From Eledone cirrhosa (lineage: Eukaryota): 64,000 nucleotides of DNA. The notes beneath the pieces are model-generated. The model did no database searches. It was not told the DNA's origin and saw only the letters and a list, made by a program, of their open reading frames with translations. Every line of letters begins with the position of its first letter. The first letter of the stretch is position 1. Positions 3,728 to 60,973 of the stretch are shown here, piece after piece. Where the stretch lies: NCBI GenBank assembly GCA_964016885.1, contig OZ024743.1, positions 73,346,001-73,410,000 of the forward strand, in the 5' to 3' direction. The translations under genes were made by a program, and so were the position numbers.

Positions 3728-4078
3728 TTCGCTTCTGAATTTGTTTAGCAAGATTCTTTATCTGAAATCGTGTGTTGAAACCGATATTGTTATACTTTGG
3801 GAGGGTCATGTTGCCAATAATAAAACACACGCACCAGTTGATTTCACTTCAATTTATTATAATAAATTTATAATAAATTTATAAATTTCTGGTTGGTTGG
3901 TTGGTTCCACAACCAGATAGTTGTTTATACATAGTCATAGTTCTTTCGTCACACACTCTGTGGCCTCTTCAGTGACTGGGGATTCCTTTCTTTGTTTCTG
4001 TGCCTCTCCTTTGAAGTGAAAGCAACTGGTGCGTGTGTTTCTTATTGGCAACATGACCCTCCCAAAGTATAACAATAT
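3728..4078. mobile_element. Mini inverted PLE terminus in (TA)n, related to the 37.3-44.6 kb element
   Basis: 3784-3852 is the reverse complement of 4011-4078; shares atattgttata(c/t)tt(t/g)gggagggtcat with 37373-37398; TA on both sides. Confidence 0.75.
3933..3977 (-). ncRNA. Type I hammerhead ribozyme motif
   Basis: agtca-CTGAAGA-ggccaca gagtg tgtgac-GAAA-gaac-TA-tgact; 5-bp stem I. Confidence 0.6.
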
Positions 4079-4303
4079 ATATATATATATATATATATAT
4101 ATATATATATATAAATGAAAGGTATAGAAAGTATTGTAGCTAGAAGCCAACAGTATTCCATAATATATAATATATAATATATATATATATATATATATAT
4201 ATATGTGTGTGTGTGTGTGTGTGTATGTATGTATATACACATGTATATATATATATATATATATATATATATATATATATATATATATATATATATATAT
4301 ATA

Positions 4304-4392
4304 CAAGGTGTCCCAAAAAATGTATACACACAATATTTATTAAAATGCTGTTGAAATATTGAAGTATGTATACATTTTGGGGGGACATCCTG
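4304..4392. mobile_element. Tc1/mariner-type MITE
   Basis: Imperfect TIRs caaggtgtcccaaaaaatgtataca / tgtatacattttggggggacatcctg, flanked by TA. Confidence 0.7.
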
Positions 4393-4644
4393 TATATGTA
4401 TATATATATATTAGGAAAACAGGTGAGAAGTGAGGAGAAATTTAAAGAGAGATTTATTTGATCACAGCTGTTCTTTCACTAATGTTTACATAATCATTCC
4501 ACAAATACGATTTTAGGAACATAACATGAAACCTCTCTTATCCTCATATATATATATATATATATATATATATATATATATATATATATATATATATATA
4601 TATATATATATATATATATATATATATATATATATATATATATA

Positions 4645-5045
4645 CGATATATTAACAAATGGAAACTATATTTGTAAAACCATATTTATTTCATTATACA
4701 TATTTCAAGGACACCAAGTTAAATTATAGTGTGCTTTCATCAGATAAAATATAATATAGAGCAGTTTTATAAATAAATATTGACATACCCTTAAATAATG
4801 CGACCATTTCTGTTGGAAGCTCCCGGATAGTTTTATAAAACTGCTCTATATTATATTTTATCTGATGAAAGCACACCATAATTTAACTTGGTGTCCTTGA
4901 AATGTGTATAATGAAATAAATATGGTTTTATAAATATAGTTTCCATTTGTTAATATATCGTAACTCCAATAAATTGTTGAGTGCTTTATATCAGTTATAA
5001 AAATATTTGCTTGTTGTATCCCAACAATTTAAATAGAACTTCTAC
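4645..5045. mobile_element. Mini inverted PLE-like terminus in (TA)n with a decayed HHR-like core
   Basis: 4645-4772 is the reverse complement of ~4832-4960; ~83-nt extra tail on the right; CTGATGA (4862) ... hairpin ... GAAA (4899). Confidence 0.6.
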
Positions 5046-5314
5046 ATATATATATATATATATACATACAGTATATATATGGACCGCATAAATATATATA
5101 TATATGTATATATATATATATATATTTAAGCGCTCCATAACTGTATATTGGATGAGTGTTTAGATTATAGTAGCTGTTAACGCTATATAACAAGAGACCT
5201 TTCTTCTAAGTATCCATTGTGGTCATACAGTTTGCAAATAGAATGTGAGTTTATGGGTTTTTTACTAGTAGTGTGCATTCATTGATTCTTCGGAGGATTT
5301 GCAGATTCGAATTT

Positions 5315-56994: not shown

Positions 56995-57016
56995 ATATAT
57001 ATATATATATATATAT

Positions 57017-57560
57017 AAAGAAAAAGAGATGAAATCGAAAATGCAACTGGAGTCTTATTTTTTTTTAAATATATATATTTATGTGGTTCCTTTACCGGTT
57101 TCGCAGTTCTTCTGCTTTTCAAAAGTAGAGTTGAGATGGAGGGTCTGTGGTTTTTCTCACATCTGGTTGGTCTCTGAATGTTACTTGTTTTGTATGGAAA
57201 AAGTGGCTCGAAATGCCAGGTTTTTCGAGAAGTAATTTGATTGGTTGGTCAATAATTATAATAAATTTCGCGCCAGTTCGCGTTACAATAGTTCTTCAAA
57301 TAAGAGGGGGGGGGGGGTTTCACAGGTTGTTTTTTCATATATGAGTGTTTGAATTTCTTTTTACTTGAAAAAAGAGGGCTCACGAAGGCTTTGTTGGGGT
57401 TGGTTATAAATGAAATTATGGCTGTCACGTGAACAAGTTTTCATTAAATTTTCGCGCCCTTATTTGGAAATCCATTCTGTAGCCTTTTTAGAGAATTTTA
57501 TGATAAGTAAAAGATAATGGTCAAGAGAAATGGGATGGGAGAATTGTTCTGGTTCAGTGA
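57017..57560 (-). mobile_element. Copy of the 31770 repeat family with a variant HHR core at 57089-57126
   Basis: High similarity to 31832-32042. Confidence 0.6.
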
Positions 57561-57851
57561 ATATGGTTAGTTTGCTGGGGTGTCAGAATTCAGATCTTCT
57601 ATTGAATAAAGAAAGTAAAGATATGTATGTTTATTTGTGTGCTTGTGTGTGTGTGTGTGTGTGTGTGTGTGTGTGTGTGTGTGTGTGTGTGTGTGTGTGT
57701 GTGTGTGTGTGTGTGTGTGTGTGTGTGTGTGTGTTTGAATTTCTTTTTACTTAAAAAAAGGGGGCTCACGAAGGCTTTTGTTTAATAAACGTGATTTGAT
57801 TGGTTATATATATATATATATATATATATATATATATATATATATATATAT

Positions 57852-60800
57852 ATTATAAAAAATAAACCAAAGAAGCCTTCAATACATCAAAAGTCTTTAT
57901 TAGCCAACAATGTTTCGTCCTATTAAGGACTCATCAGGGCAAGTAAAGCTACAAGAAGCACTATCGGCCAATACAAGCCAAAAGCTCAGAAGAATATGGA
58001 GTATACATCTATTAAAGCCTAAGAAGGATATCAAGGAAAAGTAGGCTAAGATTAAGAGCGAGCAGTTACAAACATAGATGTAGACCAAATAGCAAGGAAG
58101 TGATTAACATGTTGAACCCACATTGTGAACATTATATAATGCACAAACTTGAAACACAAATGGTAATATAATGCGAGAATTACAGTACGATATAGAATAT
58201 AATATAATATATAATATAATATAATAGATGGTGATAATAAAAAGCTTAATATATGTATATATATATATATATATATATATATATATATATATATATATAT
58301 ATATATATATATATATATATATATATATATATATATATATATACATATATACATTAGTACAAACACAAACTAACACTTATTAAGTATTTAAATATATATA
58401 TATATATATTGTTTACAGTATAATATAATAAAGATAAAAATAAAAATAAAATATAATATATAATTCCCTGTCAGTGTGCATAAACAATATAAAAACATAA
58501 TAACATTATAATAACAATATTATAATATATTGACATCAAAATATATACAAAATTACATCATATATATAATTCAAGGTTAACAAATAGTATAAAGTTTTAC
58601 ACAGGGTAAGAAAAAAATCATATAGAACTAAATAGTGTTGAAAAAATTGTGTTGAAAAAAAAAATCTATACCATTGCAACAAATACACGGAGGTCAAGTC
58701 GTTTTACATTGGCATAAATATTACCAAAATATCACAAAATATTACAAAATATAACAGAACAGTACTTCAAATTACATATATTAAAATCTATAATACGATT
58801 ACATAAAAATGATATGATATAGCAACAATTAATATCAAATATCAAACAGAGTCTAAGGAAATGCTTAATAAATATTTACGTGGTTGAGATACACAGACAT
58901 ATATTAATGAACAACGTGTGGTAGTAAAAAAATAAATTAAATAAACCGAAGATCGAAAAACAAAAACAAGTATATTTACTTAGGTGTCACAAGCGGTTAA
59001 GTAAAAGAAGAGATAGAAATGTAAGCGGCGAATTGACTAGAAAACCTTTTTAAATTAATTAATATTAAAAGTATTTAAAATACATATTTAGTCACTTCAA
59101 AATTGGCTATAGTTTAAGTCATCAAAAACGTATAAGTTTGAGATATTTCAATAAAATTATCAAGAATAGAGTAAAATATGCTCCGTTCAGTCGAATAACG
59201 TTATCAAATAAAAGGACTCTAAATAGAACTATGGTAGACCAATGGGAACAGAAAGAAGAGAGGTTATGGAGGATAGGAAGGAGCATAAAAGTAAAATCAA
59301 TATATTATATAATATTATAAAAGGAGCATAAAGGTGAAATTTATATATAGTATAATAGAAGGGGCGGATATTAAGTGTGTAGAGGAGGAGGTACATTAGT
59401 TGAATGAGACTCCAACCAAAGTATTTAATAAGATAAAAACCCATAAGGTGTTAGTAGTGAAACTATAATAATGCTTAAGACGATAGATAGGGTATGGTAG
59501 CCAAAAGACTATGGAACTTAAAATCGAAAAGTTGTAAAAAACTAATAATAATAAAGATGAAGGTAATCAAAATGAACCTAAACAAAAAAGATAAAGAAAT
59601 ATAGCAGCTAGTGGATACGAGTTAAACTACCAGAACTTTTAGGTCTATAATAGAAGAAAGAATTAGAAATGGCATGGGGGCAGGAAGAAAATATCTCAGA
59701 CTTTCTATTAAGCAAAACTTCCCTACAGAAAATTATAGAGTGGGTCTCTAGGATACAGAGATTACAGAATTTAGTGTGTGTTGATAGGTTATTTGAGCGT
59801 GCTACTATGCGCCAATTAAGGCTATATATCATGCCTGCCCCTTTAAGATCCCAGATATGGTGTGTTAAAGAAGTAGTGTTCTTAAACTTAACATGCTTAA
59901 AATTAGAGATATGAGAATTAAACCTAGTTTTAAAAGTATTTGGCGTGGAGCCTATATATGTGCTATTAGAAGAATCAGTCTTAACTTCACAAGCATAAAC
60001 AATGTTCCTAGAGAGGCAGTGACCATTTAAAGGGCAGTTAATACTTACTCTACAGTTACACTTCCTGGTGCTATTTACCGGCTGAATAAGTGATGCATCA
60101 CTTCTAGGGTTATTATAAGATAAGGTCTGCTCAGGTGTTAAGGCATTAATGGATCTATCAAGACTAGTAGTACGCAAAGAGGAGTAGCTGTCCCTAATTT
60201 TCATATTGTTAGTGCTAGCTAAATGAGAACTAATATTAGGGTGGTAGAGAATAATAGTTTAATTACATTTTTATTAAAAATACCATGGTATTTATTAGTA
60301 GGAGGGAAATTTTTCTCTAAGATAGAAAAGAAAGACCTAGGGATGTTAGTTAATACTTCATGATCATAAGGCGGGTTAAAATAAGTATTGAGTCTCCTCC
60401 TATTTCTATCCTTACGAACTCTACCGTTATCCAGTATCCCACTAATAGGATCAGGGTTACTACGAGGACTAATTAAAACAACATTATTAGAAGCAGCCAA
60501 AACCCTATTGAGTCTCCTTCTGTTTCTACCTTTAGTATATCTACTGTTATCTGGAATCATATCAATACGATTAGGGTTACTACCAGGATCAGTTGAAATA
60601 ACACTATTAGAATTAGTAAAAACATTACCACTGGGTGAGCGATCAGAGTGCCTAACTTGTTCCCTAGAACTAATCCCGAAATGTGTACCATTAGACTCAC
60701 TATTACGATTACGGTAGCTTAACTATTAGTGACCAAGTCCGAAGTCACATCTAAAAAGTTGACTGCTTCTTGTAGCTTTACTTGCCCTGATGAGTCCTTA

Positions 60801-60973
60801 ATAGGACGAAACATTGTTGGCTAATAAAGACTTTTGATGTATTGAAGGCTTCTTTGGTTTATTTTTTATAATTCTTCGGCTCTGTTTAATTACATTGAGC
60901 TATATCTTATACTGTCATTTCTATAATATGAAGAAGGTGTTTAACTCCAACACACTCTAGTATTTTAATTCTT
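57852..60973 (-). mobile_element. 5'-truncated PLE (third family): GIY-YIG ORF, long AT-rich 3' UTR, inverted pLTR at 60764-60973
   Basis: YFNPPY..KYHGIFN; CNC..CPLNGHC..NIVYAC..YIGST..FKTRF..H; CNLC..E; LN..SE..CPH; 57852-57960 mirrors 60764-60872. Confidence 0.9.
60784..60821 (+). ncRNA. Canonical type I HHR in pLTR (mirror copy 57903-57940 on -)
   Basis: gcc-CTGATGA-gtcct taat aggac-GAAA-cattg-TT-ggc. Confidence 0.9.

Follow-up and report, generated by a model that had tools for sequence, protein, structure and literature searches.

Two questions have been raised about the non-LTR retrozymes of animals: which retrotransposon moves them, and whether their arrays are made by rolling-circle reverse transcription or by local amplification. 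Mobilisation by Penelope-like elements (PLEs) and rolling-circle reverse transcription have already been proposed in passages of PMC7229834 and bioRxiv 10.64898/2026.07.22.740005, in which the PLE link is drawn from co-occurrence, hammerhead ribozyme (HHR) type and pLTR phylogeny. The preprint (2026) also discusses a satellite-birth model and states that the precise mechanisms are still to be elucidated, and a review of 2020 describes repeats without a conserved motif pointing to an autonomous partner (PMC7761336). The window, that is, the whole 64,000-nt stretch of DNA analysed here, bears on both questions: it holds two non-coding hammerhead arrays, A and B, which carry the same insertion signature as PLEs, a case that we did not find in print. 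An enzyme leaves its footprint directly in the ends of an insertion, and those of the arrays match a footprint specific to PLEs. We consider it probable (roughly 0.7) that target-primed reverse transcription by PLEs into (TA)n produced all ten inserts described below, with the arrays handled in trans as multimers.

Self-BLAST and repeat finding across the window recovered nine head-to-head inverted inserts in (TA)n, each at the position given by the original prediction and designated here E1 (at 3728), E2 (4645), array A, E4 (37320), E5 (45562), E6 (48599), E7 (49993), array B and E9 (57852). Their private tails measure 56, 83, 66, 53, 64, 44, 66, 58 and 100 nt, respectively, with 69 nt for array A and 61 nt for array B if an ambiguous TAT is counted; the approximate lengths predicted beforehand agree with these values to within 1 nt. 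Among 38 TA-to-TA segments of at least 60 nt, nine were inverted and all nine were staggered, comprising eight of the above inserts and a tenth, E10 (at 31613), which obeys the same rule with a tail of 40 nt; E9, split by internal TA runs, was missed by this survey and recovered by self-comparison and repeat finding. Two segments scored slightly below the survey cut (a flush MITE at 4304 and a possible mini-insert at 49877), and no flush inversion with a hammerhead was found among the TA-to-TA segments of the window. All ten inverted inserts thus have one tailed and one short end, with tails of 40–100 nt, a pattern expected with a probability of about 0.001 if ends picked sites independently at even odds, nine of the ten having been pre-selected. 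This geometry was read from one window and one allele, and the (TA)n target masks any TSD; within that scope, the observation of staggered inverted inserts in (TA)n is confirmed.

The 3' ends had been predicted to face outward in each insert. This was borne out in six of the nine by a strict type I hammerhead in both arms, at E4 by an ORF and a relaxed core in both arms, and at E1 by homology plus a relaxed core in one of the arms; at E7, where the ribozyme is truncated, support for this polarity is weak. The strict descriptor gave 26 matches in the window, all within these six inserts, compared with a mean of 0.13 in 30 shuffles. Apart from the arrays, strict type I hammerheads lie near the 3' ends of E2, E5, E6 and E9, as in EN+ PLEs, while E1 and E4 have a relaxed core only and in E7 and E10 the ribozyme is truncated or absent. 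All ten inserts also have the inverted, 5'-truncated form with a tail at one end that characterises EN+ PLEs.

E4, E5 and E9 carry the single ORF of EN+ PLEs, with reverse transcriptase (RT) and, at the C-terminus, a GIY-YIG endonuclease (EN), broken in the latter two. E4 (37320..44613) is an inverted dimer of a 5'-truncated PLE, with a tailed arm at 37320-41163 (-), its tail at 37320-37372, and a short arm at 41164-44613 (+). Its ORFs, ending at 37894 (-) and 44092 (+), encode an N-rich N-terminus, RT and, C-terminally, a GIY-YIG EN; the RT and GIY-YIG motifs were seen by eye in the open frame, with an RVT_1 match at E=1.6e-4. Judged by its CX4CxxC linker, which fits the CX2-5CxxC form before GIY-YIG, E4 would be of Neptune/Nematis type, and its best named relative is an Octopus vulgaris protein (68%). 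Between its arms there are just 9 differences in about 3450 sites, and their N:S pattern (7:2) is neutral. E5 (45562..47719) and E9 (57852..60972) are broken, 5'-truncated PLEs of Hydra type. E5 occupies 45726-47719 (+), with an inverted short arm at 45562-45725, a tail at 47656-47719, one frameshift, one stop, and HHR cores at 45629(-) and 47588(+). In E9 it is the coding arm (57852-60763, -) that is short-ended, and the small arm (60764-60972, +) that bears the tail (60873-60972); its GIY-YIG frame (59608-60258) matches at E=6e-4, TA runs lie inside the 3' region, and HHR cores are at 57937(-) and 60787(+). E9 has all three Hydra-clade motifs (CxCX5C linker, CxxC, and CxH around conserved E and N), E5 retains CxxC and CxH with the third linker Cys replaced, and both occupy the (TA)n target of that clade; both are truncated past the N-terminal RWK and DKT motif region, and the Hydra assignment rests on the remaining motifs. 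The Pfam matches to RT (E4) and GIY-YIG (E9) are under the curated cut-offs, with five of seven frames lacking a Pfam match, and at E<=1e-20 protein searches with the PLE frames gave 162 homologs in one case and 397 in another, most of them without a name.

Five inserts are short. E1 (3728..4078), a non-coding PLE end fragment related to E4, consists of a tailed arm at 3728-4010 (-), with the tail at 3728-3783 and a relaxed HHR core at 3972, and a short arm at 4011-4078 (+). Assignment of its spacer to the short arm was ruled out by the ribozyme orientation, which puts it on the tailed arm, and E1 therefore does not discriminate against a fold-back origin. E2 (4643..5045), an inverted HHR fragment, has a short arm at 4643-4773 (-), a tailed arm at 4832-5045 (+) with the tail at 4963-5045, HHR cores at 4743(-) and 4862(+), and a 58-nt spacer not assigned to either arm. 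E6 (48599..49018) is a perfect 188-nt hairpin of arms 48643-48830 and 48831-49018 without spacer, with a tail at 48599-48642 and HHR cores at 48703(-) and 48958(+). E7 (49992..50199) has a 16-nt loop, a tail at 49992-50057 and arms that differ at 7 of 61 sites. E10 (31611..31732; tail 31693-31732), which is of the E7 family and was absent from the original prediction, is joined at a 4-nt palindromic homology, and its short-ended arm carries about 19 nt more 5' sequence than the tailed arm. Comparison of the arms did not establish two template RNAs per insert: the differences in E4 look neutral, and the G/T variant that E7 and E10 have in common in their short arms concerns one site, with a chance level of roughly 0.1.

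Array A (32089..34422) has a 466-nt unit, a tailed arm at 32089-33013 (-) of 925 nt (2 units minus 7), with the tail at 32092-32157, and a short-ended arm at 33011-34422 (+) of 1412 nt (3 units plus 14); all of its units are identical (100%). Array B (50246..56994) has a 514-nt unit, a tailed arm at 50246-55976 (-) of 5731 nt (11 units plus 77), with the tail at 50249-50306, and a short-ended arm at 55975-56994 (+) of 1020 nt (2 units minus 8), with one substitution among 13 units compared. From their sequence both would be classed as non-coding, type I hammerhead, non-LTR retrozymes: the strict descriptor finds one HHR per unit (5/5 in A, 13/13 in B), the GC content is 0.36 (A) and 0.34 (B), thus below 45%, the ORF list holds no ORF of at least 100 aa within either array, and the predicted unit circles are 67–72% paired and, at -159 and -182 kcal/mol, lie about 11 SD below crude doublet shuffles, for which the values are -93 and -115. 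Stem I shows three double-sided changes between A and B. The Rfam family HH9 scores 36.5 bits in A and 18.5 in B, both below the gathering score of 52; in the Rfam e-value scans, E5 and E6 gave no hammerhead match, only HH9 in A and, weakly, in B was useful, and the microRNA matches that dominated were set aside as chance hits to TA repeats and hairpins. The two arrays are related, both terminate internally, inside a unit, and they have a common long-end site although they are otherwise diverged. In unit coordinates, the 5' ends of the arms are at 8 and 384 in A and at 438 and 462 in B; each is at most 14 nt away from an RT start site, and the ribozyme cut (164, 156) is distant from them. The length of three of the four arms deviates by no more than 14 nt from an exact multiple of the unit (post hoc P about 0.001-0.016). 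In both arrays a pair of hairpins spans the tail (z -3.3, -3.9), and as only these two of the ten tails fold better than shuffles, a conserved tail hairpin common to all elements was dropped. Comparison of the units with the PLEs of the window gave no significant similarity outside simple repeats, the best non-simple match, between array B and the ORF of E9 (E=0.39), being taken as chance; a pLTR similarity that would mark either array as a non-autonomous derivative of a specific PLE was thus not found within the window.

In order of position, the short ends of the nine original inserts share 4, 2, 2, 4, 2, 0, 3, 2 and 2 nt with the TA run. At least 2 nt are thus shared by eight of nine, compared with 21% at random breakpoints of the same elements (P about 2e-5), so the AT/TA microhomology foreseen for every short arm holds with the sole exception of E6, where it amounts to 1 nt if the last T is counted as TA and otherwise to 0. 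The long ends of both arrays, where the continuation is known, have 3 nt of TA homology. E1 and E4 use the same second site, as anticipated, and their long ends lie no more than 3 nt apart. E7, E10 and a copy at 61668 share sites. Random variation of offsets within a family had been named as evidence against the rule, and this is partly what is seen, offsets not being constant within a family: the short site is fixed in three of three copies of the E7 family, but one of four long ends, that of E10, halts ~27 nt before its relatives. An old relative of E5, at 9695, matches neither site, its end lying 144 nt upstream of site 2. Long ends vary also in a further, single-arm family, in which one copy (31771..32041, -) ends at the long site and another (48297-48560) about 20 nt before that of the first. 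A third copy (57014..57224, -), which is 95% identical to the first and has no inverted partner, stops 61 nt before it at the short site, where there are 4 nt of TA homology, indicating that the short site is able to act alone as a 3' end.

Two-site priming on both target strands, as originally suggested, fits these data and comes close to an in vitro result for an anole PLE (PMC11167929). The GIY-YIG endonuclease would nick both strands of the microsatellite, for which another PLE provides in vitro precedent; of the two 3'-OH ends, one would prime reverse transcription at an internal position of the RNA, site 1, and the second at site 2, 40–100 nt upstream, possibly aided by TA primer-RNA pairing of 2–4 nt, a role suggested by the homology observed. 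The two cDNAs would then extend toward each other and be joined head to head, often via the short homologies or palindromes seen at the junctions, to give a product whose 3' ends both point outward and whose arms differ in length by the tail. E4, E5 and E9 would be protein-coding copies and E1, E2, E6, E7 and E10 short 5'-truncated products, whereas arrays A and B would be non-autonomous hammerhead retrozymes using the same machinery in trans; the array RNA, most likely a ribozyme-made circle, may have been reverse-transcribed in several laps starting at the two sites, and the signature suggests that each array arrived as a multimer in a single event. In E9, E10 and array A the short-ended arm holds 5' sequence missing from the tailed arm (in E9 at least 295 nt, or, should the arm be continuous, about 2.8 kb, and in array A one unit), and neither arm can therefore have been copied from the other. 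The stagger rule, proposed as the link between the non-coding arrays and PLE proteins, holds for A and B, which show the same ends, and this link is what is new here. This insertion-site evidence, from two arrays in one window, points to PLE machinery as mobilising animal retrozymes, the mobilised form probably being a multimeric cDNA from an RNA circle. A more specific version, whose odds stand a little short of even, is that a PLE dimer primes the retrozyme circRNA from both nicked (TA)n strands at two fixed sites marked by the hairpin pair, circles the template and tends to stop at lap boundaries, so that the inverted array is born in one insertion and its ends preserve a trace of the enzyme as well as of the circular template.

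It could instead be that a PLE inserts a small staggered inverted retrozyme or pLTR seed and that the arrays then grow locally by unequal crossover or slippage, a course that we regard as unlikely. Such growth adds whole units, which keeps the phase and explains directly the near-whole-unit arm lengths; amplification of pLTR-derived units is proposed in a passage of bioRxiv 10.64898/2026.07.22.740005, and the 11 identical units could equally have been homogenised or mis-assembled. However, with units and arms identical but for one substitution, growth would need to be very fast, in both arms and at two loci, and a seed for crossover needs at least one full internal repeat per arm, itself requiring a circular or multimeric template. 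Growth from such a seed retains the PLE link and drops only the rolling-circle step.

Less probable still is a fold-back in which one PLE cDNA, after priming at the tail site, turns round at a palindrome, copies itself and is joined to the far TA end at a microhomology 40–100 nt short of its start. E1, E4, E5, E6, E7 and B are each individually compatible with this course: E6 is a zero-loop hairpin, E7 and B have small loops, B turns at a natural hairpin, the few neutral arm differences of E4 are what one template predicts, and end joining would explain the TA homology of short ends; self-priming has been proposed for palindromic PLE junctions (PMC3846280). Against it, E9 and E10, with private sequence in both arms, cannot be made in this way, array A would need a later gain of a unit, the single-arm copy uses the short site, and two RT start sites are demonstrated in vitro in the sections of PMC11167929 drawn upon here. 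Fold-back may nevertheless operate at some loci.

It is very unlikely that the arrays were inserted by another RT (an RTE, CR1 or Tx1 LINE, through twin priming) or by repair at fragile (TA)n cruciforms, their likeness to PLEs being coincidental. LINE remnants are abundant in the window, the arrays have no sequence link to a specific PLE in it, and (TA)n is break-prone. Twin priming of the L1 type yields non-overlapping inverted segments with a 3' tail at the RNA end; in contrast, the arms here repeat one and the same sequence and have internal ends, the offsets of the arrays (58–69 nt) fall within the PLE range of 40–100 nt, and a start site is common to the two related arrays. An assembly or long-read artefact of palindromic chimeras is scarcely credible, for although the arms of A, E9 and E6 are 99.5–100% identical, the symmetry halts at TA runs with unrelated flanks and is offset by tails conserved within families, and arm divergence across ten loci spans 0 to about 13%; the copy number of array B could still be wrong.

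Under the preferred reading of PLE-primed insertion, the finding supplies exact RNA start sites, for which an in vitro PLE assay is already at hand, and a simple signature that can be counted genome-wide. For PLEs themselves it adds detail only, namely longer tails, TA homology at start sites and the use of one site per arm.

Comparison with known systems places the arrays among animal non-LTR retrozymes, which in passages of Cervera and de la Pena (2020, PMC7229834) and Li et al. (2026, bioRxiv 10.64898/2026.07.22.740005) are likewise non-coding tandem repeats with a single type I HHR in each unit, a low GC content and a self-paired predicted circle, and with which newt satellite 2 is grouped as a related system. 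The units of 466 and 514 nt exceed the 170–400 nt given in the former passage and lie within the 51–972 nt of the latter. Inverted arrays, tails and (TA)n junctions are absent from these passages, and a literature search, whose coverage excluded most subscription papers and Repbase, returned no report of inverted, tail-staggered retrozyme arrays. Tc1/mariner elements and MITEs also have inverted ends adjoining TA; unlike the inserts, with their offsets of 40–100 nt and outward HHRs, they have flush ends, short TIRs and no HHR, as do three TIR-type elements of the window (4304, 34851, 61721). Non-autonomous Chlamys PLEs such as MRC1 resemble the arrays as non-coding PLE passengers with multicopy head-to-tail insertions, but belong to a green alga, generally have a 3' end similar to that of the autonomous partner and mostly lack HHRs, and the passage on them in PMC8557442 describes no inverted staggered arrays.

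The closest likeness is to the PLEs. For PAc, a Poseidon element of Anolis (the clades here being Neptune/Nematis-type and Hydra-type), the sections of Frangieh et al. (2024, PMC11167929) on target-primed reverse transcription in vitro report, as proposed here, cleavage and extension of both strands of an AT-rich target, a predicted dimer, and a pair of neighbouring internal RT start sites lying downstream of the HHR cut, the tail being the sequence between them. Initiation there is reported as non-homologous to the cut DNA, whereas homology is found at the start sites here, and those sections give no model for inverted inserts and do not address non-autonomous RNAs. The original prediction was right that inverted PLE copies with a tail are known, but understated this: an inverted copy with a one-sided tail in (TA)n is the PLE structure typically drawn (PMC8557442, in its structural passages; PMC3846280), and the staggered inverted layout is already known for PLEs. 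EN+ PLEs, as covered in those passages (Craig et al. 2021) and in Arkhipova et al. (2013), are 5'-truncated inverted copies with a tail at one end, a type I HHR near the 3' end, palindromic or microhomology junctions and N-rich ORF segments, with (TA)n as the target of the Hydra and Naiad clades in the former. Their reported tails of 30–40 bp compare with 40–100 nt here, and beyond these descriptions TA homology at the start sites is now quantified and the rule extended to tandem retrozyme arrays.

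All nine head-to-head inversions originally predicted to be bounded by TA runs were present in the window, a repeat-rich stretch of animal sequence in which (TA)n runs, SINEs, LINE remnants and mariner-type elements abound. In order of position, these are the inserts at 3728 (E1) and 4643/4645 (E2), the non-coding tandem array A (32089–34422), the inserts at 37320 (E4), 45562 (E5), 48599 (E6) and 49992/49993 (E7), array B (50246–56994) and the insert at 57852 (E9). In each of these one arm is longer by a 3' tail which, following removal of target-shared bases, measured 56, 83, 66, 53, 64, 44, 66, 58 and 100 nt, respectively; the lengths first given for A (69 nt) and B (61 nt) include an ambiguous TAT, without which they are 66 and 58 nt. 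At the short end, the TA run and the continuation of the element have 4, 2, 2, 4, 2, 0, 3, 2 and 2 nt in common, i.e. at least 2 nt in eight of the nine inserts, compared to 21% of random breakpoints placed in the same elements (P about 2 × 10−5). TA microhomology, which had been claimed for all short-arm ends, was thus upheld for eight inserts and is lacking in E6 (0 nt, or 1 nt if the last T is counted as TA).

A census of TA-to-TA segments (n = 38) identified nine inverted segments, each of which is staggered. This set includes a tenth insert at 31611/31613 (E10, tail of 40 nt) that was absent from the original prediction, while E9 falls outside the count as its internal TA runs split the insert, and was recovered separately. 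Three TIR-type elements adjoining TA, comprising a MITE (4304–4398, just under the census cut) and Tc1/mariner-type remnants (34851–35669 and 61721–62613), are flush-ended and provide a control for the stagger. A possible mini-insert of 87 nt, similarly just under the cut, lies between TA runs at 49877–49963 and displays a 31-nt hairpin with approximately 46 nt extra on its left, in which no hammerhead ribozyme (HHR) was found. Inserts of the Penelope-like element (PLE) type are clustered at 31584–32091, 48297–50248 and 56993–57853 in neighbouring and often shared TA runs, which represent (TA)n hot spots. Additionally, a degenerate inverted insert related to E6 is located at 45356–45452, and a palindromic, head-to-head SINE pair was observed outside (TA)n (7572–7800), the same SINE forming a tandem dimer at 49428–49850.

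A type I hammerhead descriptor matched the window 26 times, compared with 0.13 matches on average over 30 shuffled versions. Every match lies within E2, A, E5, E6, B or E9, in both arms of which the hammerheads point outward. The polarity of E4 was assigned from its ORF and a relaxed hammerhead core in both arms, and that of E1 from its homology to E4 together with a relaxed core on the arm that bears the tail, while that of E7 is weakly supported. Start sites of reverse transcription (RT) at the short end lie 22–52 nt downstream of the predicted ribozyme cut in E2, E5, E6 and E9, and 231 nt (A) and 295 nt (B) downstream in the arrays. In unit coordinates, the predicted cuts fall at 164 (A) and 156 (B), and the predicted start sites at about 395 and 466 (A) and 451 and 514 (B).

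As predicted, E1 and E4 have a common short site, and their long ends are no more than 3 nt apart. E7, E10 and a copy at 61668 also have a short site in common, while A and B have a common long-end site with 3 nt of TA homology at each. In one further family, a single-arm copy at 31771 stops at the long site and another, at 57014, at a short site that precedes the long one by 61 nt. The proposed constancy within families was borne out for these recurring short sites but not in every other case: the long end of E10 lies about 27 nt before those of E7 and the copies at 36293 and 61021, the 48297–48560 copy ends about 20 nt short of that at 31771, and the end of an old E5 relative is placed 144 nt upstream of the short site. 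The short site seems to be constant, with more play at the long site. The segment 61021–61668 has a left end like the long end of the E7 family and a right end like its short end, both facing outward, with arms that do not align, and is possibly a chimera or an insert derived from two families. The E7-family copy at 36293–36440 is single-armed, ends at the long site and is folded back over a very short stretch at the 5' end.

The same final structure is obtainable by fold-back of a single cDNA as from two RT events, and E1, E4, E5, E6, E7 and B are compatible with either route; fold-back possibly operates at some loci. However, fold-back cannot produce private sequence on both arms, as in E9, E10 and A (in the case of A, barring later unit gain), and the short site is also used by a lone copy; in E2, a spacer between the arms could belong to either. 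Because of these private arms and this lone copy, and because both strands are nicked and extended by an anole PLE in vitro, with the tail delimited by two neighbouring internal sites at which RT starts (available part of PMC11167929), the two-site priming on both target strands originally proposed is favoured, with a probability of roughly 0.7. Both ends of each array are internal to the unit, and RT initiation would therefore be internal, on circular or multimeric RNA. The 5' ends of all four array arms lie within 14 nt of a start site, far from the ribozyme cut, and the length of three of the four arms deviates from a whole-unit count by no more than 14 nt (post hoc P about 0.001–0.016). 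These lengths and 5' ends suit laps round a circular RNA, although the subsequent addition of whole units would leave an identical pattern; local amplification is favoured for tandem formation in the accessible sections of bioRxiv 10.64898/2026.07.22.740005.

Arrays A (466 nt unit) and B (514 nt unit) are non-coding, mutually collinear relatives, each unit of which carries one hammerhead, whose stem I differs between the two arrays by three double-sided changes. With a GC content of 34–36% and strong predicted self-pairing as circles, they fit the definition of non-LTR retrozymes in their sequence features, self-cleavage and circRNA expression being putative; comparison of their units with the PLEs in the window revealed no match beyond simple repeats. 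Both units retain the octamer ATGCAAAT and, about 23 nt downstream of it, another conserved block (A unit positions 34–67, B unit positions 38–72; e.g. window 33127 and 56065), the two pairing as a hairpin in the predicted unit fold. The rest of the window contains the octamer just once. Since newt satellite 2 reportedly uses an snRNA-type promoter (PMC2220036, in part), this block may, by analogy, represent an internal promoter.

Judged by its motifs, E4 is a 5'-truncated PLE of the Neptune/Nematis type that is present as an inverted dimer, with predicted RT, CX4CxxC linker and GIY-YIG domain. Of about 3450 sites, 9 distinguish the two arms (seven non-synonymous and two synonymous, against a neutral site ratio of 4:1). 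The largest ORF in the window has an Octopus vulgaris protein as its best named relative (68% identity), which points to a probable octopod host, and Pfam support for the PLE domains was weak and under cut-off. E5 and E9 appear, by their endonuclease motifs, to be broken Hydra-type copies as defined in the available portion of PMC8557442. Asn-rich, internally repetitive coding stretches occur in two unrelated PLEs (41164–41690 and 60219–60722), and such segments are likewise described for rotifer Penelopes in the part of PMC3846280 at hand. In E9, an AT-rich spacer of about 1.65 kb with internal TA runs (57961–59607), possibly captured host DNA, separates the endonuclease stop from the ribozyme.

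The occurrence of the same stagger rule in the non-coding arrays, predicted to link them to PLEs, is corroborated by their tails (66 and 58 nt), common long-end site and TA homology. This PLE footprint on two retrozyme arrays (n = 2 loci) is the new part; it is immediately relevant to a question that is still open, and yields exact testable sites. The link itself was already expected, as the proposal that PLEs mobilise retrozymes has been based on their co-occurrence and on the HHR type (PMC7229834; PMC7761336; PMC11722881, each in part) and on the phylogeny of PLE pLTRs in the above preprint, the accessible text of which does not contain the words 'tail' or 'junction'. Active Penelope families are listed for octopus, with retrozymes unmentioned, in the available part of PMC13282606, and retrozyme arrays that are inverted and tail-staggered were not found described in the text of the literature searched, the coverage of which was incomplete. 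Conversely, seven of the nine inserts and the rule itself cleanly illustrate PLE biology that is already established: two-site RT initiation is already published (PMC11167929) and non-autonomous multicopy insertions are known from Chlamys (PMC8557442). Furthermore, the typical PLE described in the available portions of PMC8557442 and PMC3846280 is an inverted copy with (TA)n bias and a one-sided tail of 30–40 bp, whereas the tails of the inserts in the window span 40–100 nt.
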